From assembly GCF_044647545.1 (NCBI RefSeq), contig NZ_CP172818.1: a stretch of 64,000 nucleotides of DNA. The stretch is one strand, 5' to 3'. This DNA comes from Escherichia coli. Its GTDB lineage: Bacteria; Pseudomonadota; Gammaproteobacteria; Enterobacterales; Enterobacteriaceae. Every line of letters begins with the position of its first letter. Within the stretch, counting starts at the first letter, position 1. Under the pieces are notes generated by a model, which saw only the letters and a list, made by a program, of their open reading frames with translations, was not told where the DNA came from and did not search any database. Shown piece by piece: positions 8,569-56,704 of the stretch. The translations under genes were made by a program, and so were the position numbers.

Positions 8569-8620
8569 TAGCATGCTTCCAGTTTTCTCGGTCAGGGACC
8601 GAGCGTTAATCGAAATTCGG

Positions 8621-17921: not shown

Positions 17922-19754
17922 TCAAAACGGAAACAGCATCGGGATCATCACCACACAAACCGCCATCACGATAATGGTGAACGGTACCCCCAACTTCACA
18001 AAGTCACTGAAGCTGTAATTTCCCGGACCTAAAACCAGTGTGTTAACAGGTGAAGAAACCGGCGTCATAAAGGCGGCGGATGCTGCCATCGCCACGACCA
18101 TCGCGAATGGGTAAGGCGACACACCCATCGTTTTGGCAGCAGCCAGCGCAATCGGAGCCATCAACACCGCCGTCGCGGTATTAGAGATAAACAGCCCAAT
18201 AACCGCCGACAGGACAAACAAACAACCCAGCATCATATGTGGCCCGTAACCGCCGCCAATGTCCATCAGCCCTTTCACCGCCAGCGCGACACCTCCCGTT
18301 TTCTGTAATGCCACAGCAAACGGCATCATCCCAACGATCAAAATAATGCTCGGCCAGTGAATGGATTTATAGGCGCTTTCAGCATCGATACAGCGGAATT
18401 TCCCCATCAGCAGGCAGGCGATGATAGCGGCAACAGGATTAGGGATTTCATCGGTAAGCATTAACGCCACCATCAACACCAGGCAAAAAATGGCATGAGG
18501 TGCCTGACTGTGTGCTGGCGATGCTTCACTCACTTCTTCTGGTAAGTTCAGCGCCACAAAGTCACGCCCCTGTTTTGCCAGCATACCGATCAGTTTCCAG
18601 TTACCCACAACCAGGATGATATCGCCCAGCAGCAGAGGCTCATCCGCCAGCGAACCTTCCATCGCCTCGCCATTGCGCTTTAGCCCCACCACATTCAGTC
18701 CGTAGCGGGTACGAAAACCAATTTCGCGCACCGATTTACCAATAAGTTCAGACTCAGGAATTAATGAAATCTCTGCCATGCCCACATCAAGGGCCTGGTC
18801 AGAAAAATACTCGCCGCGCAGTACCATCGGCTCCAGCAATTGCTCACTACAAAATTGCCGGAGATCGACATCAGCCGCAGACATATCAATAAGCAAAACG
18901 TCACGCGCGCGAAATTCAGAAACCCCATTAACGTTCACGATAACGCGACGAAAACGCCGCCAGCGTTCAACACCGATGACGTTAGCGCCATAACGCTCAC
19001 GTAATTTGAGATCGTCCAGCCGTTGACCAATCATTGGCGAACCGGGGCGAATAGCCAGACGACGCGCACGCCCGGTCAGTCGATATTCACGGATAAGATC
19101 GCGAAAGGTTCGACGCGTCCAGCCTTCGCGCTGCGGGGTCTGGGTATCCCCTTTCAGCATGAAACGCATCACTAACATATACAAAATACCCAGCACCAGC
19201 ACGACCAGGCCAATAGGTGTTACGCTAAAGAAACTAAAACCATGATAGCCTTCACGCAGCAATTCACTGTTGACTACCAGGTTCGGCGGCGTCGCCACCA
19301 GCGTCATCATGCCGCTTATCAGCCCGGCAAAACTTAACGGCATCATCAGGCGCGACGGCGACGTTTGCATACGCATGGCAACGCTTAACACCACGGGAAT
19401 AAAGATAGCGACAACGCCGGTTGAACTCATAAACGCGCCAAGCCCCGCGACGGTCAGCATCAACAAAACCAACATTTTGATTTCACTGTTGCCCGCCACT
19501 TTGACCAGCCATGTCCCCATTACAGTGGCAACACCGGTACGGACCAAACCATCGCCAATAATGAACAAGGCGGCAATCAGGACAACGTTAGGATCGGAAA
19601 AGCCGGAAAATACTTCGGGGACCGTCAGCGTTCCGCTTAATGCAAACGCGACAATAACAAACAAAGCGACCGCATCCATACGCACTCTGCCCGTCGCAAA
19701 CAAGACGATGGCAACGGCCAGTAATGAAAGAACCCAAATCAATTCACCGTTCAC
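17922..19754 (-). CDS. yfbS: Putative anion transporter with internal TrkA-C (RCK_C) domains
   Basis: 610-aa ORF; hydrophobic N- and C-terminal halves flanking a charged central segment. Confidence 0.88.
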
Positions 19755-30111: not shown

Positions 30112-31005
30112 ATGAAGATAGTGATCACCGGAGGGACGGGATTAATTGGTCGCCATTTGATTCCGCGTTTGCTGGATCTGGGCCATCAAATCACGGTAGT
30201 GACGCGTAACCCGCAGAAAGCCAGTTCCGTTCTCGGCCCTCGGGTGACACTATGGCAAGGGCTTGCCGATCAAAGTAACCTCAACGGCGTTGATGCGGTA
30301 ATCAACCTGGCCGGAGAACCGATTGCTGATAAACGCTGGACTCACGAGCAAAAAGAGCGTCTCTGCCAAAGCCGCTGGAATATCACGCAAAAACTGGTCG
30401 ATTTGATTAATGCCAGCGACACGCCACCGTCGGTACTCATTTCCGGCTCGGCAACGGGCTATTATGGCGACTTAGGTGAAGTGGTGGTTACCGAAGAGGA
30501 ACCGCCGCATAACGAATTTACCCATAAACTCTGCGCCCGCTGGGAAGAAATTGCCTGTCGGGCACAAAGTGACAAAACGCGAGTGTGCCTGCTGCGTACC
30601 GGCGTAGTGCTGGCACCGGATGGCGGTATTCTCGGTAAAATGCTGCCGCCGTTTCGTCTTGGCCTGGGCGGGCCGATTGGTTCCGGTCGGCAGTATCTGG
30701 CCTGGATTCATATTGATGATATGGTCAACGGCATTCTCTGGCTGCTGGATAACGAGCTGCGCGGGCCATTTAATATGGTTTCGCCCTACCCGGTACGCAA
30801 TGAACAATTTGCCCATGCGCTCGGTCATGCGCTGCATCGCCCGGCTATTTTGCGCGTCCCCGCAACCGCCATTCGGCTGTTAATGGGCGAATCTTCAGTA
30901 CTGGTATTAGGTGGACAACGCGCGCTGCCTAAACGGCTGGAAGAAGCGGGTTTTGCGTTTCGTTGGTACGATTTAGAAGAGGCGCTGGCGGATGTTGTTC
31001 GCTGA
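30112..31005 (+). CDS. yfcH: NAD-dependent epimerase/dehydratase family protein
   Basis: 297 aa; N-terminal Rossmann motif ([16 protein letters not shown]). Confidence 0.88.
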
Positions 31006-31943: not shown

Positions 31944-32139
31944 GGCGTTCCGTCACCCCTCAAATTTAAGATGACGCGACAATAACCACGATTAACACCC
32001 AATGCAGCAGGCAGTTTTTATCTTTGGACAGCGAATTCAGAAGTATTTTTAGCGGGCTGCAACTTTTACATTTCAGCGGAAGCGGACTCGCAAATTTCCC
32101 TTGAAAATACTCCGGCAGCGTTAGCTACCGGAGGGGGAA

Positions 32140-32913
32140 TTATTTCAGCGATCCCTTAAGGAACTGTTGCAGACGAGGGCTTTGCGGGTTGCCAAATAAC
32201 TGCTCCGGCGCGCCTTCTTCCTCTATTTTCCCCTGATGGAGAAAAATGACGTGAGTAGAAACATGGCGAGCAAAGCCCATTTCGTGGGTCACCACCACCA
32301 TGGTTTTCCCCTCTTCTGCCAGTTGCTGCATAATACGCAACACTTCGCCTACCAGTTCAGGATCGAGCGCCGAGGTAGGTTCATCAAACAGTAAAACTTC
32401 CGGTTCCATTGCCAGCGCCCTTGCGATGGAAACACGCTGTTGCTGACCGCCGGAAAGATGCACCGGATATTTCCCCTGCGCACGTTCGTCTATCCCGACT
32501 TTCGCCAGATACTTCACCGCCCGCTCGCGCGCTTCCTGCTTGCTCAGGCCCAACACCTGAATCGGCGCTTCCATGACGTTTTCCAGCACCGTCATATGGC
32601 TCCAGAGATTGAAGTGCTGGAATACCATCGTCAGGCGTGTGCGCAGTAAGCGCAGCTGATTTTTATCGGCGACTTTGAGTTGACCATCTTTGTCGCGCAC
32701 CAGATTGATCGTCTGGCCATTGACCACGATCGATCCTTCGCTCGGTTTTTCGAGGAAGTTAATGCAGCGCAGAAAGGTACTTTTCCCCGATCCCGACGAT
32801 CCGATGATACTTATGACATCTCCGGCATTCGCTTGCAATGAGACCCCTTTCAGCACTTCGTGTTCGCCGTAGCGTTTGTGCAAATCGATAACGTTTAATT
32901 TATTCTCGGACAT
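32140..32913 (-). CDS. hisP: ABC transporter ATP-binding protein (His/Lys/Arg/Orn)
   Basis: 257 aa; Walker [10 protein letters not shown], signature [14 protein letters not shown], Walker [12 protein letters not shown]. Confidence 0.95.
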
Positions 32914-32920
32914 CGTATTC

Positions 32921-33637
32921 TCAGTGCGTTGAAGAAGGTTTCACATGCTGCAACCAGCGTTTTTCAGCTCTGCGAAAGAGGCTGATCAGGACATAAGAGA
33001 TGATTAAATAGAGCACCGCGGCAATGCCGAAGGCGGTAAAAGGTTGATATGTGGCGGCGTTAATATCGCGGGCAATTTTCAGCAGATCCGGCACCGTGGC
33101 AGTAAATGCCAGCGCAGTAGAGTGCAGCATCAGGATCACTTCGTTGCTGTATGCCGGTAACGCAATACGCAGCGCAGAAGGCAAAATAATGCAGCGATAC
33201 ATTTTAAAGGTCGAGAAGCCATAGGCTCTGGCGGCTTCAATTTCCCCATGCGGCACTGAACGGATTGCCCCGGCAAAAATCTCGGTAGTGTAAGCGCAGG
33301 TGTTAAGCGTCAGCGCCAGCACGGTACAGTTCAGACCACTGCGAAAAAAGGCGTTAAGGAACTCGGTTCCCTTAACAATCTCCAGCGTGTACATGCCGGA
33401 ATAGAACACCAGCAACTGAACATACAGCGGCGTACCGCGAAAAATATAGGTAAATAACCAGATTGGAAACTGGATGTATTTATTACTTGAGACGCGACCA
33501 ATCGCCAGAAACAGCGCCAGAACTCCGCCTATCACTACCGACAAAATCAGCAGCCACAGGGTGATCGCCACGCCAGTAAAGCGATAACCGTCAGTCCACA
33601 GCAGTGGTTTCCAGTATTCATGTAAGATTTCGATCAC
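32921..33637 (-). CDS. hisM: ABC transporter permease
   Basis: 238 aa; EAA loop ([28 protein letters not shown]). Confidence 0.93.
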
Positions 33638-34320
33638 AGGTCAGCCCTCTTCACACCCACGGAGTAGCGGCGTTCAAGGAACAGCAGCACACCATTGGAA
33701 ACGGTGGTGAAAACAAGATAAATCACGCCACAGACGATAGCGAAATAGAACGGTTCCCAGGTACTTTTGCCTGCCAGCTGCGTGGCTTTGACCACATCTT
33801 CCAGGCCGAGTAACGAAACCAGTGCGGTAGATTTGAGGATCACCTGCCAGTTGTTGCCAATGCCTGGCAGGGCGTAACGCATCATCGCCGGAAACATGAT
33901 CCGCCGAAACACTTGCCCACGAGTAAAACCGAACGCCGTCGCCGCCTCTATATGTCCTTTCGGCACTGCCATAAAAGCACCACGGAACGTTTCGGTAAAA
34001 TAAGCACCGTAGATAAAACCGAGAGTAATAATACCAGCGACCATCGGATCGATATCAATCTGCCCGACGCCCATCGCCTCCGTCACCGTGTTTAGTGCAA
34101 TCTGCAAACCGTAGAAAATTAGCAGCATCAACACCAAGTCCGGCACGCCTCGAATCAGCGTGGTGTACCCTTCGAAAATCAGCCCCGAAAGCCGATTTTG
34201 CGAGAGCTTACCGCCAGCGCCAATTAAACCGATGATTACAGCGAGCACTACAGAGCTGATAGCCAGCTCCAGCGTGACGAGCGCACCCTGTAAAATAACA
34301 CCTGAAAACCCATACAACAT
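33634..34320 (-). CDS. hisQ: ABC transporter permease
   Basis: 228 aa; EAA loop (EAATAFGFTRGQVFRRIMFPAMMRYALP); overlaps hisM start. Confidence 0.93.
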   Translation of the reverse strand: MLYGFSGVILQGALVTLELAISSVVLAVIIGLIGAGGKLSQNRLSGLIFEGYTTLIRGVPDLVLMLLIFYGLQIALNTVTEAMGVGQIDIDPMVAGIITLGFIYGAYFTETFRGAFMAVPKGHIEAATAFGFTRGQVFRRIMFPAMMRYALPGIGNNWQVILKSTALVSLLGLEDVVKATQLAGKSTWEPFYFAIVCGVIYLVFTTVSNGVLLFLERRYSVGVKRADL

Positions 34321-34409
34321 GCTGCCTGTCCTGTCGTGTGTGGTGAATTACCGCCTCTTGTCTCCCTCCGGTTACCCGAAGGGAGCGGGCTTTCTTTCAC
34401 CGATGGCGA

Positions 34410-35192
34410 TTAACCACCATAAACATCAAAATCGAAGTACTTTTTCGCTAATTTCTCGTAAGTACCGTCAGCGCGCATTTCGGCAAAGGCTTTGTTCAGT
34501 GCCTCGCGCAGTTCGTTATCTTCTTTACGCAGGCCCATGCCGGTCCCTACGCCAAACAGTTTTTCATCTTTAACAGACGGGCCACCGAATTTGTAATCTT
34601 TACCGACGGGTTGTTTGAGGAAACCTTCGCTGGCTGCGACCTCATCCTGGAACGCGGCATCAATACGTCCGGCAGTCAGGTCAGAATAAATATTGTCCTG
34701 CCCCTGATAAGAAACGATTTCAATGCCTTTTGGTGCCCAGTGTTCGTTACCGAACGTCTCCTGGGTGGTGCCCTGCAATACGCCTACCCGTTTGCCTTTC
34801 AGCGATTCGACTGTCGGCTGAATGTCGGAATTTTTCGCCACCACCAGACGAGAATCGGCAGCGTACAGTTTGTCGGTGAAGGCTATTTCTTGCTGACGTT
34901 TTTCCGTAATGGAAAGCGATGACATGATGGCGTCAATCTTCTTCGCTTTTAAGGACGGGATTAACGCATCCAGTGGGTTTTCGACAAACGTACATTGCGT
35001 ATTGATGCGTTTGCACAACTCCTTCGCCAGATCGATATCGAAGCCAACCAGTTCACCTTGTGAATTTTTTGATTCAAATGGCGCATAGGTCGGATCGGTA
35101 CCGATGCGGATGTTTTGCGGAATCGCAGCAAACGCCGCAGTTGCGCTGGAGAAGGCCAGAACCAGAGAGAGCGATAGCACCAGTTTTTTCAT
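34410..35192 (-). CDS. hisJ: Histidine-binding periplasmic protein
   Basis: 260 aa with signal peptide; paralog of adjacent argT. Confidence 0.93.
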
Positions 35193-35412
35193 AATGTCCT
35201 CAACTGACAGTCTTTTTATAGGGAATATTTACAGGTTTGTTACACTTATCGTGCCATAAAATTGACCATCAAGGCAAAATATCCCGCCCCGTTAGACGTA
35301 TTATTTTTCATTAAAAATGCTTAAGTATGCATTTCAATGCACCACGATAGTGCAACAAACCTGGCGTGCACCATGATGATCATTCCATCAGGTACAGCTT
35401 CCCTGCGACGTA

Positions 35413-36195
35413 TCAGTCACCGTAGACATTAAAGTCGAAATACTTTTTCGCCATCTTGTCGTAGGTGCCGTCCTGACGCAGCTCGTTAAGCGCCTTATTG
35501 AAGGCCGCCGTCAGTTCAGCATCATCTTTACGCAGCCCTACACCGGTGCCGTCACCGAAGTATTTTTTGTCTTTCACTGATGGGCCTGCAAAGGCGAAAT
35601 CTTTACCGGCGGGTTGCTTAAGGAAACCTTCGCTGGCAGCAACCTCATCTTGTAACGCAGCATCCAGGCGTCCTGCAGCCAGATCGGAATAGACCAAATC
35701 CTGGTTAGCATAGGCCACCACATCGACCCCCTTACTGCGCCAGTTATCATTGGCATACGCTTCCTGGGTTGATCCCTGCAGCACACCAACATGTTTACCT
35801 TTCAGTGAATCCAGCGTTGGCTGAATCGGTGAACCTTTGGCAGCAATCAGACGAGAGTCTGCGGCGTACAGCTTGTCGGAGAAAGCAATCTCCTGCTGAC
35901 GTTTATCGGTAATGGAAAGCGACGAAATAATGGCGTCGATTTTTTTCGCTTTCAGTGAGGGGATCAGCGCGTCAAAGTCACTGGCAACCCAGGTACATTT
36001 CACCTGCATCCGTTTGCACATCTCGTTACCGAGATCGATATCAAAGCCAACAAAGTCACCTTTGGCATCTTTCGATGAGAACGGCGCATAGGTGGTATCA
36101 GTTCCGATACGTACCGTCTCCGGTAGCGCCGCATAGCTGGAAGCCGCTGCGGAGAGACCGACTAACAAAGACAGAGCGAGAATCGACTTCTTCAT
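35413..36195 (-). CDS. argT: Lysine/arginine/ornithine-binding periplasmic protein
   Basis: 260 aa with signal peptide; about 70 percent identical to HisJ by eye. Confidence 0.93.
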
Positions 36196-36225
36196 ACATA
36201 ACCCTCAAGTGAAAATGGCTTTTTT

Positions 36226-36251
36226 ATGTTGTGTATTGTGTTGTGTGTTTG
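36226..36251 (-). promoter_or_regulatory. CA-rich element in argT 5' leader (GcvB-type sRNA target motif)
   Basis: Minus-strand caaacacacaacacaatacacaacat about 30 nt upstream of argT ATG. Confidence 0.45.
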
Positions 36252-36262
36252 CAGGCTCTTTC

Positions 36263-36282
36263 ATGCAGGTCTTATGCCATCT
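36263..36282 (-). promoter_or_regulatory. Sigma54-type -24/-12 promoter upstream of argT
   Basis: Minus-strand TGGCAT-aagac-CTGCA matches TGGCAC-N5-TTGCA at the GG/GC core with correct spacing, about 70 nt upstream of ATG. Confidence 0.45.
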
Positions 36283-36429
36283 TGACGACAACAGTAACAT
36301 TCAACGTTAAATATGTTAATAAGACGTTGCATTATTGTCCTGAAGTTGAAGATAGCAGGTATAGCGGTTGAATCGCAGCGTTTCGATTGAATGGCAGAAA
36401 CAAAATGTCGAGGATTTGATCGCGGTTGC

Positions 36430-36452
36430 AAAATTGCCCTGAAACAGGGCAA
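36430..36452 (-). terminator. Hairpin downstream of ubiX (terminator-like)
   Basis: Perfect stem ttgccctg/cagggcaa with 3-nt loop; short U run on minus strand. Confidence 0.4.
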
Positions 36453-36460
36453 CAGCGGAG

Positions 36461-37030
36461 TTATGCGCCCTGCCAGCGGGCAAAGAGATCTTCAGGAAGC
36501 GTTATGGCGAATTGATCGAGTACACGGTTAACCGTCTGATTTATCACATCATCAAGGGATTGCGGGCGATGATAAAACGCCGGAACGGGAGGCATAATCA
36601 CCGCACCGATTTCTGCTGCCTGAGTCATTAAACGCAGATGGCCTAAGTGCAATGGTGTTTCACGTACGCAGAGCACCAACGGGCGACGCTCTTTCAGCAC
36701 AACATCTGCCGCACGGGTCAGTAAGCCATCAGTATAGCTATGGACAATGCCGGACAGGGTTTTGATTGAACAGGGTAAAATCACCATCCCCAGTGTCTGG
36801 AAAGAACCGGAAGAAATGCTGGCAGCAATATCGCGCGCATCGTGCGTCACATCGGCTAATGCCTGCACTTCGCGCAGGGAAAAATCCGTTTCGAGGGATA
36901 AGGTCTGGCGCGCGGCCTGGCTCATCACCAAATGCGTTTCAACATCTGCGACATCGCGCAGAACCTGTAATAAGCGCACGCCATAAATCGCGCCGCTGGC
37001 ACCGCTGATGCCTACAATGAGTCGTTTCAT
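36461..37030 (-). CDS. ubiX: Flavin prenyltransferase
   Basis: 189 aa; N-terminal flavoprotein motif (MKRLIVGISGASGAIYGVRLLQ). Confidence 0.93.
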   Translation of the reverse strand: MKRLIVGISGASGAIYGVRLLQVLRDVADVETHLVMSQAARQTLSLETDFSLREVQALADVTHDARDIAASISSGSFQTLGMVILPCSIKTLSGIVHSYTDGLLTRAADVVLKERRPLVLCVRETPLHLGHLRLMTQAAEIGAVIMPPVPAFYHRPQSLDDVINQTVNRVLDQFAITLPEDLFARWQGA

Positions 37031-37124
37031 AAATAGTTGCCCTGTCAGACTTGCAGGCAGACTTTGCAGGATTTCGGCGGGAGTTGCAAGTCAGGGTGCC
37101 AGACCGGCACCCTGAGCGAAGGCA

Positions 37125-39167: not shown

Positions 39168-39331
39168 ATGTGTCCCACGATTTTACGCCCTGTCATCCTG
39201 TTCGGGGCGCATTCTAACAGAAAAAGAAAACGTTTGCGTAGGGATTTCCTTCCCACGCATCAATAAAAATGGCGCTGAAAAAATATTCAACGCCATCGAC
39301 TTTTTATGCCTTTGCGGCATCGGGCAATGCG

Positions 39332-42450: not shown

Positions 42451-43110
42451 TTATTTTGCGGCGCGTGCCGCAGCGCGTTTGTGGCGAATAAATTCGAAAA
42501 CACCTGGCAATATTGAAACAAAAATAATGCCAACAATCATCAGTTTAAGGTTGCTCTGAATGAAGGGGAGCGTTCCGAAGAAATAACCCGCGTAGGTAAA
42601 AATCAGTACCCATAGCAACGCGCCGATGACGTTAAAAGCGGCGAAATGACGGTACGACATGTGGCCCATTCCCGCAACAAACGGCGCGAACGTTCTGACG
42701 ATCGGCACAAAACGGGCGAGAATAATCGTTTTGCCGCCATGTTTCTCATAAAACTGATGGGTTTTGTCGAGATAACTGCGACGAAAGATTTTCGAATCCG
42801 GATTACTGAACAGTTTGTCACCAAATAACCGTCCAATGGTGTAGTTCACCGCGTCACCCACAATCGCGGCGATCAGCATCAGCACCACCATCATATGGAC
42901 GTTGAGATCGTTGGTTTCCAGTGATGCCAACGCACCGGCAACAAACAGCAATGAATCACCCGGTAAAAACGGCGTTACCACCAGACCGGTTTCACAGAAC
43001 AAAATTAAGAACAAAATGGCATAAACCCAGACGCCATACTCCGCGACCAGTTCTGCCAGATGCACGTCAATGTGCAGGATAAAATCGATGAGGAAATAAA
43101 TCAGGTCCAT
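42451..43110 (-). CDS. dedA: DedA-family inner-membrane protein
   Basis: 219-aa hydrophobic ORF. Confidence 0.9.
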
Positions 43111-55771: not shown

Positions 55772-56704
55772 TTAATCTTTATAAATCGCGAAATGTTCAC
55801 GGGCCGCCAGCAGCTGCTCTTTGGTGAGCATAAACACACCATCGCCGCCGTTATCAAACTCCAGCCAGGTGAACGGAACATCGGGATATTGTTCCATAAG
55901 ATGTACCATGCTGTTGCCGACTTCACAAATCAGCACACCATCATCAGCGAGGTAATCTGCCGCGTTACCGAGAATGCGACGCGTCAGTTTCAGACCGTCG
56001 GTGCCAGATGCCAGGCCCAGTTCCGGCTCGTGGCGGTATTCGTTTGGCAGGTCGGACATATCTTCCGCATCGACATACGGCGGGTTGGTGACGATCAGGT
56101 CGTACTGCACTTTCGGCAAGTCGCGGAACAGATCGGACCGAATAGGAATGACGTTGTGGATCAGACCGTGTTCTTCGATATTCTGTTCGGCAACCGCCAG
56201 CGCGTCGGGAGAGATATCTACCGCGTCGACTTCCGCTTCCGGGAAGGCATAAGCACAGGCAATCGCAATGCAGCCGCTTCCTGTGCACATATCTAAAATA
56301 TGCTGCGGTTGCTTGCTGATAAGTCCGGCAAATTTATTGTTGATCAGTTCACCAATCGGCGAGCGCGGCACCAGCACACGTTCATCGACGTAAAATTCAT
56401 GACCGCAGAACCAGGCTTTGTTGGTCAGGTAAGCCACCGGAATGCGTTCGTTGACGCGGCGGATCACGCGCTCAACAATACGGTGTTTTTCGCTGGAGGT
56501 CAGACGCGCGGTGCGCATATCTTCTGGGATATCCAGCGGCAGGTAGAGCGATGGCAGCACCAGCTGTACGGCCTCATCCCACGGGTTATCGGTGCCGTGG
56601 CCGTACCAGATATTCGCCGCGCTGAAGCGGCTCACCGACCAGCGCAACATGTCCTGAATGGTTTGCAGCTCATTTACTGCTTCATCAACGAAAATTTTAT
56701 CCAC
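55772..56704 (-). CDS. prmB: Ribosomal protein L3 glutamine methyltransferase
   Basis: GTG start at 56704 ([10 protein letters not shown], 310 aa) inside longer ORF; NPPY motif ([12 protein letters not shown]). Confidence 0.9.

Follow-up and report, generated by a model that had tools for sequence, protein, structure and literature searches.

The locus described here is, with a probability that we put at about 0.93, the argT–hisJQMP amino-acid uptake locus of E. coli, in which two paralogous periplasmic binding proteins share one ABC transporter and regulation follows the scheme set out below. This locus is a founding model for ABC transporters, and as a discovery its identification carries little weight; it has already been published that the two binding proteins are homologous and share a membrane complex, that argT is controlled by σ54 and NtrC and hisJ by ArgR, and where the GcvB sites are. 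The worth of the analysis is that it tidies the record. To judge from its sequence, hisJ keeps a degraded nitrogen-control promoter that was overlooked in the original prediction, and the statement made there that only argT has a σ54-like promoter needs correcting. A small evolutionary picture also emerges, in which both genes were probably once driven by NtrC and σ54, and the hisJ promoter would have decayed in Escherichia, its NtrC sites being kept. Throughout, the window is the whole 64-kb stretch of DNA that was analysed.

Genes of the locus and the shared transporter

The genes of the locus are as follows.

35413–36195, minus strand: argT, a 260-residue precursor with a 22-residue signal peptide; lysine/arginine/ornithine-binding periplasmic protein
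34410–35192, minus strand: hisJ, a 260-residue precursor; histidine-binding periplasmic protein
33634–34320, minus strand: hisQ, membrane permease subunit; NF011714, 479 bits (cut-off 319)
32921–33637, minus strand: hisM, membrane permease subunit, overlapping hisQ by 4 nt; NF011651, 464.7 bits (cut-off 306)
32140–32913, minus strand: hisP, ATP-binding subunit; NF007908, 577.6 bits (cut-off 466)

The interval originally singled out, with outer coordinates 34410 and 36195, runs exactly from the stop of hisJ to the start of argT, and the two 260-residue binding proteins proposed for it are borne out alike by the open reading frames, the family models, the PDB matches and RefSeq. ArgT reaches 583.6 bits with its NCBIfam equivalog (NF011586; cut-off 440) and only 428 bits with the HisJ model; HisJ reaches 599.4 bits with its own (NF011965; cut-off 459), as against 434.7 bits with the ArgT model. 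Both score 180–190 bits with the ArtJ/ArtI models, well under the cut-offs of those models. ArgT matches PDB entries 2lao, 1lst and 1laf (E about 1e-150), residue 1 of the chain corresponding to residue 23 of the query, and HisJ matches 1hsl and 1hpb (E 6e-155); the crystallised mature chains (1laf and 1hpb; 238 residues) cover residues 23–260 of the precursors. In both precursors the first 22 residues, which are hydrophobic and end in A-x-A, are predicted to be the signal peptide. RefSeq gives the same gene identities, and the annotation is present in 5,424 of 5,426 complete E. coli genomes.

Single copies of hisQ, hisM and hisP follow on the same strand, 3′ of the binding-protein genes, as had been proposed, and the feeding of one ABC transporter by both proteins agrees with the family models and with published work on shared docking (PMC6640053); nothing was found that speaks against this arrangement or the identities of the genes. 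With ubiX upstream and rpnB downstream, the locus has the genes, gene order and flanking genes of argT–hisJQMP in Salmonella Typhimurium and E. coli K-12, the Ames laboratory model, and nothing of substance distinguishes it from the K-12 locus. Each binding-protein gene does have an upstream control region of its own, in separate spacers of 265 nt (ubiX–argT) and 220 nt (argT–hisJ). The spacer upstream of argT is 100% identical to that of K-12, and all three spacers of the locus together differ from K-12 by one SNP, so that experiments with K-12 carry over to the present locus. Collinearity of the full window with strain FDAARGOS_497 was considered and rejected, as it breaks down beyond smrB. 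An Rfam search of the whole window gave no match inside the locus, its sole match being the nuoG RNA at 8576–8618, and a tRNA search of the window found none.

ArgT binds lysine, arginine and ornithine, and HisJ binds histidine and, weakly, arginine (PMC6640053). Both proteins would pass into the periplasm by export, bind their ligands there and then dock on a shared HisQ–HisM–(HisP)2 complex, which would import the ligand using ATP; docking of the two on one membrane complex is described in PMC6640053, which cites Kerppola 1991 and Ames 2001. The artPIQM–artJ system of E. coli is similar in that the paralogous ArtI and ArtJ are thought to feed one ABC complex under the control of ArgR (PMC6640053). 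It differs in having one binding-protein gene inside the operon and the other downstream, in lacking a σ54/NtrC promoter, and in its specificity.

The argT leader and the GcvB sites

The following features bear on the control of argT and on the spacers and ends of the operon.

36436–36450, minus strand: short G+C hairpin (GCCCTG-TTTC-AGGGC, then AATTTTG) just 3′ of the ubiX stop, found by eye
36264–36280, minus strand: argT σ54 promoter ATGGCATAAGACCTGCA (TGGCAT-N5-CTGCA; −24 GG / −12 GC), from the weight matrix and published ChIP-seq
36227–36254, minus strand: C/A-rich element with which the argT mRNA begins and to which the R1 seed of GcvB pairs, from duplex energy
34353–34390, minus strand: stable stem-loop in the hisJ–hisQ spacer, with no U-tract, from folding
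34325–34347, minus strand: a further C/A-rich stretch, TTCACCACACACGACAGGACAGG, located in the leader of hisQ; a published GcvB R1 target, from conservation and the literature
32110–32133, minus strand: terminator-like hairpin after hisP, a 10-bp stem with 7 G–C pairs followed by TATTTTCAAG, from the terminator scan

The bare σ54 pattern has three matches in the window against 1.96 expected, which is not beyond chance, and a weight matrix built from 49 published ChIP-defined sites was therefore used instead. With this matrix the argT element scores 14.68 bits and ranks second in the window. The best match (42517–42533, 15.7 bits) lies inside dedA and is not a ChIP site; matrix scores alone thus do not prove binding. 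The same 17-mer as the argT element is, in K-12, the σ54 ChIP-seq site OS22, and a gSELEX peak of the K-12 RpoN holoenzyme is located in the ubiX/argT spacer. The motif is kept in 76 of 77 loci from the best 80 of 525 matches. With its −24 GG and −12 GC the promoter resembles those of the glnAp2 type (glnA, glnK, glnHPQ, astC and nac), and the regulation of argT by NtrC is documented (PMC6640053). Under nitrogen limitation argT is transcribed from this promoter, the predicted start being at 36253, 58 nt 5′ of the ATG.

At 36220–36249, C and A make up 28 of 30 bases, a proportion not exceeded elsewhere in the 64-kb window. Between the argT leader and the R1 region of GcvB, the identity of which was confirmed by Rfam (199 bits), a 28-nt duplex of −37.0 kcal/mol is predicted, the best of 8,522 window tiles (z −4.9 against dinucleotide shuffles), and the median over 77 loci from the best 80 of 525 matches is −31 kcal/mol. 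Published work lists argT among the R1 targets of GcvB, with verification in Salmonella and conservation in E. coli. Like dppA, oppA, gltI, livJ and livK, it has, 5′ of the ribosome-binding site, an extended C/A-rich stretch that is complementary to the G/U-rich R1; argT itself shows no difference from these targets, and it is the operon that has an extra internal site, at hisQ. When amino acids are plentiful, GcvB pairs with the C/A-rich start of the argT mRNA and stops its translation.

That a C/A-rich element belongs to argT only, as originally proposed, is correct with respect to hisJ, the leader of which lacks a C/A-rich GcvB target (duplex −18.3 kcal/mol, z −0.75), but not for the operon as a whole, as a second such element precedes hisQ. 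The latter is kept in the spacers of E. coli, Salmonella and Citrobacter, and repression of hisQ through GcvB R1 has been verified in E. coli with a hisJ–hisQ reporter; the duplex calculated for it, at −25.1 kcal/mol (z −0.9), is not significant in the simple duplex test. Given the argT site and the one at hisQ within the operon, a single sRNA acts on the operon at two points.

The hisJ–hisQ spacer is shorter in E. coli (89 nt) than in Salmonella and Citrobacter (181–186 nt). REP-type imperfect palindromes were sought in the E. coli spacer and are absent; a different, plain hairpin is found instead, and the fold of 34315–34415 (−35.8 kcal/mol, z −3.6) is equalled by none of 200 shuffles. The Salmonella and Citrobacter spacers do contain REP-type palindromes, recognised by eye, the regular expression having missed them. 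Work on the Salmonella REP provides the analogy for the role of the E. coli hairpin, which is probably an mRNA-stabilising or polarity element standing in place of the REP and would probably keep the message for the binding proteins above that for the membrane components. At the other end of the locus, the hairpin just 3′ of ubiX is, from its sequence, probably the terminator of the upstream cvpA–purF–ubiX unit; the terminator scan missed it because its tail has only four T.

Promoter elements upstream of hisJ

The argT–hisJ spacer contains the following elements.

35367–35383, no strand assigned: NtrC half-site, its TGGTGCA arm perfect, at a distance of 29 bp from the palindrome, from the consensus scan
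35338–35354, no strand assigned: NtrC-type palindrome TGCACTATCGTGGTGCA, 1 mismatch in 13 specified positions, from the consensus scan
35295–35333, minus strand: tandem ARG boxes AATGCATACTTAAGCATT, TTT, AATGAAAAATAATACGTC, the ArgR operator of the hisJ promoter, with putative box limits
35272–35277, minus strand: putative −35 hexamer TTGCCT of the σ70 hisJ promoter, placed by conservation and published geometry
35241–35257, minus strand: σ54-like element ATGGCACGATAAGTGTA (TGGCAC-N5-GTGTA), with the −24 intact and the −12 changed from GC to GT

hisJQMP is driven by its own σ70 promoter, subject to weak repression by ArgR at the two ARG boxes. PhisJ is described as σ70-dependent by Charlier's group, with ArgR bound 17 bp upstream of the −35 and repressing weakly (PMC6640053). 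The two 18-bp boxes, 3 bp apart, match the consensus at 12 + 12 = 24 of 32 positions, which makes them the second-best tandem in the window, and they stop 17 bp before TTGCCT. ARG box 1 hardly varies across 15 genera, and the TTTGC block at the −35 is invariant in the 15-genus alignment. A generic σ70 promoter scan made no call in either upstream spacer, so that the assignment of the hisJ −35 and −10 rests on conservation and the literature. No intrinsic terminator was found by the scan between argT and hisJ (folding of the sequence 3′ of argT gives z −1.7), and transcription from argT therefore probably continues into hisJQMP; published work handles argT–hisJQMP as a single operon. The scan gave a single match there, which was rejected: a weak 5-bp stem at 35285–35298 that lies immediately before the −35 and partly covers ARG box 2 at its 3′ end.

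The σ54-like element scores 12.65 bits, ranking fourth of about 128,000 window positions and above 24% of the ChIP-defined sites. Its TGGCAC is invariant over the 15 aligned genera, and the TG-G-CACGAT that includes it may double as the extended −10 of the σ70 promoter. The −12 is GTGTA in Escherichia, CCGCA in Salmonella and CTGCA in Citrobacter, this last, canonical form being found also in Kluyvera, Franconibacter and Buttiauxella. Farther upstream, the palindrome is the sole strong NtrC match in the 64-kb window, with nothing else at one mismatch or fewer. The two NtrC sites lie some 100–125 bp upstream of the −24/−12, their centres being at −116 and −145 relative to the predicted start, a pairing similar to that of glnAp2, where the sites are at −108 and −140. 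A site is present in this spacer in 65 of 72 related loci from the best 80 of 525 matches, where the background rate is 0.02 per 250 nt. The NtrC ChIP-seq peak assigned to hisJQMP, at 23.7-fold the stronger of the two in the locus, maps to 35323–35403 of the window, over both the palindrome and the half-site; the published NtrC gSELEX includes neither the argT nor the hisJ upstream spacer.

The claim that only argT has a σ54-like promoter consequently needs to be divided. It stands for measured σ54 occupancy, as hisJ is missing from the published E. coli σ54 ChIP-seq lists, at both high and low stringency, and from the published RpoN gSELEX, with or without NtrC. By sequence it fails, because hisJ has both the element and the NtrC sites, the former in canonical form in relatives. 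Compared with glnAp2-type promoters the two genes depart in different ways: E. coli argTp has no recognisable upstream NtrC consensus, and hisJ has NtrC sites, but its −12 is degraded and σ54 has not been detected on it. The retention of two NtrC sites beside a −12 degraded in Escherichia from CTGCA to GTGTA makes it probable that ancestral hisJ had an NtrC/σ54 promoter of its own, which many related genera would have retained; in E. coli this promoter would now be weak or silent, with its NtrC sites still occupied.

Two other readings of these elements have to be weighed, and we consider both unlikely. It could be that the NtrC sites are not a remnant and form a working enhancer of the argT σ54 promoter, looping over about 0.9 kb from its downstream side and possibly serving both promoters. 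Apart from the fact that the only strong NtrC consensus of the window is here, a consensus scan of 36281–37100, upstream of the argT promoter, finds no NtrC-like site at four mismatches or fewer in the ubiX–argT spacer and the 3′ end of ubiX, and the NtrC ChIP-seq signal at argT is only 5.4-fold, in a peak added by eye, compared with 23.7-fold at the hisJ site. An NtrC site upstream of argT is lacking in Escherichia, Citrobacter and Salmonella, and 23 other loci among the best 80 of 525 matches have one at about −220. Moreover, NtrC enhancers, as Reitzer and Magasanik reportedly found in 1986, can work over kilobases and from downstream. However, the position of the sites at −116 and −145 relative to the hisJ −24/−12 is the usual enhancer geometry for an adjacent downstream promoter, the consensus scan could miss weak non-consensus sites near argTp, and an argTp ‘promoter region’ placed at the lac locus, in a published experiment for which the fragment limits are not given, was still up 2.4-fold in a glnK mutant.

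Alternatively, and with about the same small likelihood, the hisJ −24/−12 might still work in E. coli as a weak or conditional σ54 promoter, both binding-protein genes then being activated directly by NtrC and σ54. An ntr-type promoter is said to have been proposed by Ames and Nikaido in 1985 for Salmonella dhuA (hisJ). The score of the element exceeds that of a quarter of the ChIP-defined sites, and the confirmed promoters pspA and pspG likewise have a −12 of TTGTA. In published ChIP-seq of nitrogen-starved cells NtrC is bound just upstream of the element, and the authors of the ChIP-seq work note that peak calling misses some real σ54 sites, such as crl. Set against this are the absence of hisJ from the σ54 ChIP and gSELEX lists already mentioned, the Salmonella RpoN regulon table, which has argT only, and the σ70 dependence of PhisJ reported by Charlier's group (PMC6640053).

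A combination of these ideas is a more speculative proposal still. The sole NtrC enhancer of the Escherichia, Citrobacter and Salmonella loci might loop back to serve argTp from a position about 0.9 kb downstream, the hisJ σ54 promoter that it first served having decayed in Escherichia and surviving mainly within the σ70 promoter. If true, this would be a natural case of enhancer handover between duplicated genes.

The argT and hisJ duplication

The genes argT and hisJ are the products of an old tandem duplication, and it is only in the coding sequences that the duplication can still be recognised, the flanks having wholly diverged and now carrying different controls. The earlier estimate of about 70% identity, alignable end to end, was sound: an ungapped global alignment has 175 of 260 residues identical (67.3%), with 165 of 238 (69.3%) in the mature part and 10 of 22 in the signal peptide, and BLASTP gives a gapless match with 164 of 236 identical (69%, E 4e-130), in line with the published 70% (PMC6640053); for the pair of genes, chance is far from explaining such a likeness. 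The DNA is 68.7% identical, with a dN/dS of about 0.11. The antiquity assigned to the duplication agrees with the saturation of synonymous sites (pS 0.70) and with the order ubiX–argT–hisJ–hisQMP, which is shared by all 77 informative Enterobacteriaceae loci from the best 80 of 525 matches. The two leaders do differ, as was first noted: alignment of the upstream regions shows no homology (local score 18; shuffled sequences, 17.3 ± 2.4), and comparison of the 3′ flanks shows none either. Thus, within the Enterobacteriaceae comparison (77 loci from the best 80 of 525 matches), it is only the coding regions that remained alike after duplication.

Amongst the loci from the best 80 of 525 matches, ArgT and HisJ are at most 76% identical to each other, HisJ orthologues are at least 83% identical, and 18 positions are fixed differently between the two proteins. 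In the 77 genomes from the same best 80 of 525 matches, the identity of ArgT and HisJ within a genome is about 71%, with a maximum of 75%, and orthologues are always closer to one another than to any paralogue. That the likeness of the two genes has been kept up or renewed by gene conversion, and does not reflect an undisturbed old duplication, is thus most improbable: two DNA segments (nt 241–330 and 511–600) do reach 83–87% identity, and identical synonymous codons number 86 against 72 expected (z 2.2), with 16 against 10.4 in codons 171–200, but those segments are ones in which the protein is conserved in both paralogues, no identical run exceeds 17 nt, and neither a grouping of ArgT with HisJ of one species nor long tracts of near-zero dS are seen, so that recent conversion was rejected for want of a clear signal.

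The divergence extends to the binding pocket, where residue 52, Phe in the LAO-binding protein and Leu in HisJ, was reportedly tied to specificity by Oh et al. in 1994. Mature residue 52 of the present locus is Phe in ArgT and Leu in HisJ, and among related loci from the best 80 of 525 matches 75 of 77 ArgT sequences have Phe there and 80 of 80 HisJ sequences have Leu.

Gene content and age of the duplication

The genes of the locus, argT (lysine/arginine/ornithine-binding protein, LAO), hisJ (histidine-binding protein) and those of the membrane importer HisQMP2, are placed in the window as follows.

35413-36195, minus strand: argT ORF, 260 codons
34410-35192, minus strand: hisJ ORF, 260 codons
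33634-34320, minus strand: hisQ ORF
32921-33637, minus strand: hisM ORF, overlapping hisQ by 4 nt
32140-32913, minus strand: hisP ORF

The original prediction described two tandem 260-aa binding proteins, about 70% identical end to end and followed by hisQ, hisM and hisP, in 34410-36195; genes and limits (exactly the hisJ stop and the argT start) are as described, but it left unstated that all the genes lie on the minus strand. The locus was correctly named and is already known, its core for roughly four decades. RefSeq annotates the region as ubiX, argT, hisJ, hisQ, hisM, hisP and rpnB. All five proteins exceed curated NCBIfam cut-offs, with ArgT (583.6 bits; cut-off 440) and HisJ (599.4 bits; cut-off 459) each scoring highest on its own equivalog model, and HisQ, HisM and HisP reaching 479, 465 and 578 bits. 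Solved Salmonella and E. coli structures are matched at E ~1e-150, ArgT by the LAO-binding protein (2lao, 1lst, 1laf) and HisJ by 1hsl and 1hpb; the crystallised mature chains begin at ORF residue 23, consistent with a 22-residue signal peptide. The 5.1-kb his region has 100% matches in several complete E. coli chromosomes and is found in 5,424 of 5,426 complete E. coli genomes.

ArgT and HisJ are 67.3% identical when aligned end to end without gaps (175/260) and 69% by BLASTP (164/236, E 4e-130, no gaps); the mature proteins share 69.3% (165/238), the signal peptides 10 of 22 residues and the genes 68.7% of their DNA. A published value is 70%, with HisQMP2 the partner of both proteins and Kd values of 1.5 uM for ArgT-arginine, 0.11 uM for HisJ-histidine and 10 uM for HisJ-arginine (PMC6640053). 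The two ORFs are 220 nt apart. That their leaders differ, as had been claimed, is upheld by local alignment: the 265 nt upstream of argT and the 220 nt upstream of hisJ score 18, against 17.3 +/- 2.4 for shuffles (equalled or beaten in 193 of 500), whereas the same scoring gives 385 for the coding regions. The 3' flanks are likewise unrelated by local alignment, and the recognisable duplication is now limited to coding sequence.

The duplication is also ancient, as had been proposed. Synonymous sites are saturated (pS 0.70; dN 0.225; dN/dS ~0.11) and the longest in-register identical run is 17 nt. Identical synonymous codons (86 of 173, against 72 expected from local codon usage; z 2.2) are barely above expectation, so that recent gene conversion is not clearly indicated by this test. 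Relatives were sought by a scan with one genome per species, which confirmed 525, and the best 80 of these were used; they include Escherichia, Citrobacter, Salmonella, Leclercia, Enterobacter, Buttiauxella, Klebsiella, Kosakonia, Cedecea, Atlantibacter, Kluyvera, Raoultella, Mangrovibacter, Shimwellia and others. Among these best 80 of 525, argT immediately precedes hisJ in all 77 loci with sufficient upstream sequence, ubiX lies upstream of argT in 75 of the 77, and hisQ, hisM and hisP follow hisJ wherever the available sequence extends that far. Any ArgT is at most 76% identical to any HisJ in this set, while HisJ orthologues are at least 83% identical. The shared gene order and this identity gap show that the duplication is older than the sampled Enterobacteriaceae. 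Eighteen mature positions are fixed differently between ArgT and HisJ in the same best 80; residue 52, reported in the LAO/HisJ crystal-structure papers as the pocket difference linked to specificity, is Phe in 75 of 77 ArgT and Leu in 80 of 80 HisJ. In Leclercia adecarboxylata NCTC13032 (locus L026), the argT frame extended from the tblastn match carries six stop codons, as might arise from a frameshift, pseudogenisation or faulty assembly.

The argT control region

36264-36280, minus strand: sigma54 promoter motif ATGGCATAAGACCTGCA (weight matrix; K-12 ChIP-seq site OS22)
36227-36254, minus strand: C/A-rich element at the predicted 5' end of argT mRNA (GcvB R1 duplex)

All three spacers are almost identical to K-12 (one SNP in argT-hisJ, none in ubiX-argT or hisJ-hisQ), and K-12 experiments are thus directly applicable. 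Both elements originally predicted for argT, the C/A-rich stretch and the sigma54-like promoter, are borne out. ATGGCATAAGACCTGCA agrees in every letter with sigma54 ChIP-seq site OS22, whose predicted start is 58 nt before argT (Bonocora et al. 2015), and an RpoN holoenzyme gSELEX peak also lies in the ubiX/argT spacer. On a weight matrix built from 49 other intergenic ChIP sites it scores 14.68 bits, second of 127,968 window positions, and it is kept in 76 of 77 related loci (best 80 of 525). In Shimwellia pseudoproteus (locus L052) the motif is absent at its usual place (-3.1 bits), and a strong sigma54 match (18.6 bits) occurs in the hisJ spacer, at the unusually large distance of 133 nt from the ATG. 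The top match of the window, TTGGCATTATTTTTGTT (42517-42533, minus strand; 15.7 bits), lies in sense orientation within dedA, upstream of accD. Published sigma54 ChIP-seq sites do not include it, so matrix scores are no proof of binding.

Within the C/A-rich element lies the 30-mer with the highest C+A content of the window (28/30), and the element pairs with R1, the G/U-rich seed region of the sRNA GcvB, in a duplex of 28 nt at -37.0 kcal/mol (GcvB as encoded on an E. coli chromosome, confirmed by Rfam at 199 bits). No tile among the 8,522 on the two window strands scores better (z -4.9 against dinucleotide shuffles), and argT is among the published GcvB R1 targets. Directly 3' of the ubiX stop, a short G+C hairpin followed by AATTTTG (36436-36450, minus strand), where the automatic terminator scan made no call, is probably a terminator insulating argT from the cvpA-purF-ubiX transcript.

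NtrC, sigma54-like and ArgR elements upstream of hisJ

35338-35354: NtrC palindrome TGCACTATCGTGGTGCA (consensus scan)
35367-35383: NtrC half-site with a perfect TGGTGCA arm, 29 bp from the palindrome
35241-35257, minus strand: sigma54-like -24/-12 element ATGGCACGATAAGTGTA, ~100 bp downstream of the palindrome
35295-35333, minus strand: tandem ARG boxes AATGCATACTTAAGCATT-TTT-AATGAAAAATAATACGTC (consensus match)
35272-35277, minus strand: putative -35, TTGCCT

The one error of the original prediction is the restriction of the sigma54-like promoter to argT. The hisJ leader indeed has no argT-like GcvB element (duplex -18.3 kcal/mol, z -0.75), and measured sigma54 occupancy in E. coli also favours argT alone; against the restriction stand the hisJ sequence, NtrC occupancy and the relatives. 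ATGGCACGATAAGTGTA has a perfect -24 and GT where GC is expected at -12. Its 12.65 bits make it the fourth-best match of the window and exceed the scores of 24% of ChIP-defined sigma54 sites. TTGTA at -12 also occurs in confirmed sigma54 promoters such as pspA and pspG. If the hisJ start is placed 19 nt past the motif centre, the midpoints of the NtrC sites fall at -116 and -145. TGCACTATCGTGGTGCA is the only strong NtrC consensus match in the whole 64-kb window, and when coordinates are converted via the sigma54 motif (K-12 U00096.2 = window + 2,389,618; genome version from a table footnote), the NtrC ChIP-seq peak assigned to hisJQMP maps to 35323-35403, over both sites; it is 23.7-fold, against 5.4-fold for an argT peak added by eye (Brown et al. 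2014). Neither the high- nor the low-stringency sigma54 ChIP list includes hisJ, nor do the RpoN gSELEX sites, and a Salmonella RpoN regulon table names argT alone; the lack of ChIP and gSELEX signal is consistent with promoter decay.

In an alignment of 15 genera the hisJ -24 TGGCAC is invariant, and in many genera the element is fully canonical and outscores that of argT: ATGGCACGATAACTGCA in Citrobacter and Franconibacter (17.9 bits), TTGGCATGAAACATGCA in Buttiauxella (19.0 bits), and similar elements in Kluyvera, Pseudocitrobacter and Superficieibacter. It is intermediate in Salmonella (CCGCA at -12, 12.0 bits) and in all five Escherichia lineages sampled (GTGTA, 12.7 bits), and degraded in Enterobacter, Leclercia and Lelliottia. 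NtrC-like sites with at most two mismatches occur in the argT-hisJ spacer of 65 of 72 loci (best 80 of 525), clustered at -120 to -170, against a background of 0.02 per 250 nt of coding DNA. From these alignments we infer that hisJ ancestrally possessed a separate NtrC/sigma54 promoter, one that would be decaying in some lineages, including Escherichia.

For the argT promoter, argTp, the consensus scan finds no NtrC site within 300 nt upstream in E. coli, even at four mismatches; 23 other loci (best 80 of 525) carry one at about -220. Weak non-consensus sites might drive argTp, alone or jointly with those of the argT-hisJ spacer. An argTp fragment (limits not given) moved to the lac locus was still Ntr-responsive, 2.4-fold in a glnK mutant. 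Action of the spacer sites on argTp from ~0.9 kb downstream seems unlikely. NtrC gSELEX, which recovers only seven RegulonDB targets, lists neither the ubiX-argT nor the argT-hisJ spacer.

According to Charlier's group, the hisJ promoter, PhisJ, depends on sigma70 and is subject to weak ArgR repression, with an operator of two 18-bp ARG boxes, 3 bp apart and 17 bp upstream of the -35 (PMC6640053). The tandem identified here (24 of 32 consensus positions, second-best of the window) ends exactly 17 bp from TTGCCT. ARG box 1 and a TTTGC block are nearly invariant across the 15 genera; TG-G-CACGAT, 18 nt after TTGCCT, is invariant and may be read as an extended -10, a role from which the persistence of TGGCAC where the sigma54 -12 is lost would follow. 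The ARG boxes start 4 nt after the NtrC palindrome, so that sites for NtrC, ArgR and RNA polymerase are tightly packed. The dedD-cvpA spacer, upstream of cvpA-purF-ubiX, holds the best tandem ARG-box-like score of the window (25/32; 39274-39312), which may be no more than an effect of the spacer's A+T richness.

Probable read-through into hisJQMP and other features of the window

34353-34390, minus strand: stable hairpin in the 89-nt hisJ-hisQ spacer (fold, no U-tract)
34325-34347, minus strand: second C/A-rich stretch, after this hairpin
32110-32133, minus strand: terminator-like hairpin after hisP (terminator scan)

No intrinsic terminator is found after argT by the terminator scan (fold z -1.7), and published work treats argT-hisJQMP as one operon; transcription from argTp is thus likely to continue into hisJQMP. 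A hisJ-hisQ reporter has confirmed that GcvB represses hisQ via R1, although the C/A-rich stretch before hisQ falls below significance in our simple duplex test (z -0.9). The E. coli hisJ-hisQ spacer folds at -35.8 kcal/mol (101-nt context; z -3.6). Salmonella and most Citrobacter instead have spacers of 181-186 nt with REP-type palindromes, as judged by eye. REP sequences were reportedly discovered in this spacer and found to favour hisJ over the distal genes in expression; by analogy, the E. coli hairpin probably does the same job. Across Enterobacteriaceae (L004-L083, best 80 of 525), the hisJ-hisQ spacer varies between 58 and 289 nt in length, and Buttiauxella and Cedecea combine short spacers with very strong complementarity of hisQ to GcvB R1 (-32 to -35 kcal/mol).

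Other tiles strongly complementary to GcvB R1 (-35 to -36 kcal/mol, in the window's top 0.1%) lie at 19591-19725 and 56326-56430 on the plus strand and 30806-30910 on the minus strand. The tile at 56.3 kb falls in the prmB-smrB area, and prmB-aroC is a listed GcvB candidate (Miyakoshi 2021). Downstream of smrB, 57421-59335 has only short minus-strand ORFs (57-134 aa) where K-12-type genomes annotate yfcO and yfcP, a fimbrial adhesin and subunit; these are probably pseudogenised fimbrial genes. The best complete-genome match here is 98.4%, against 100% for the his region. FDAARGOS_497, identical to the window in its his region, has at this spot an AAA-ATPase and hypothetical gene pair that is absent from the window, and the spot looks like a variable site. 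Finally, Rfam matches only one element in the whole window, the nuoG RNA cis-regulatory motif, which lies between nuoF and nuoG (8576-8618, minus strand; 48 bits, gathering score 33).
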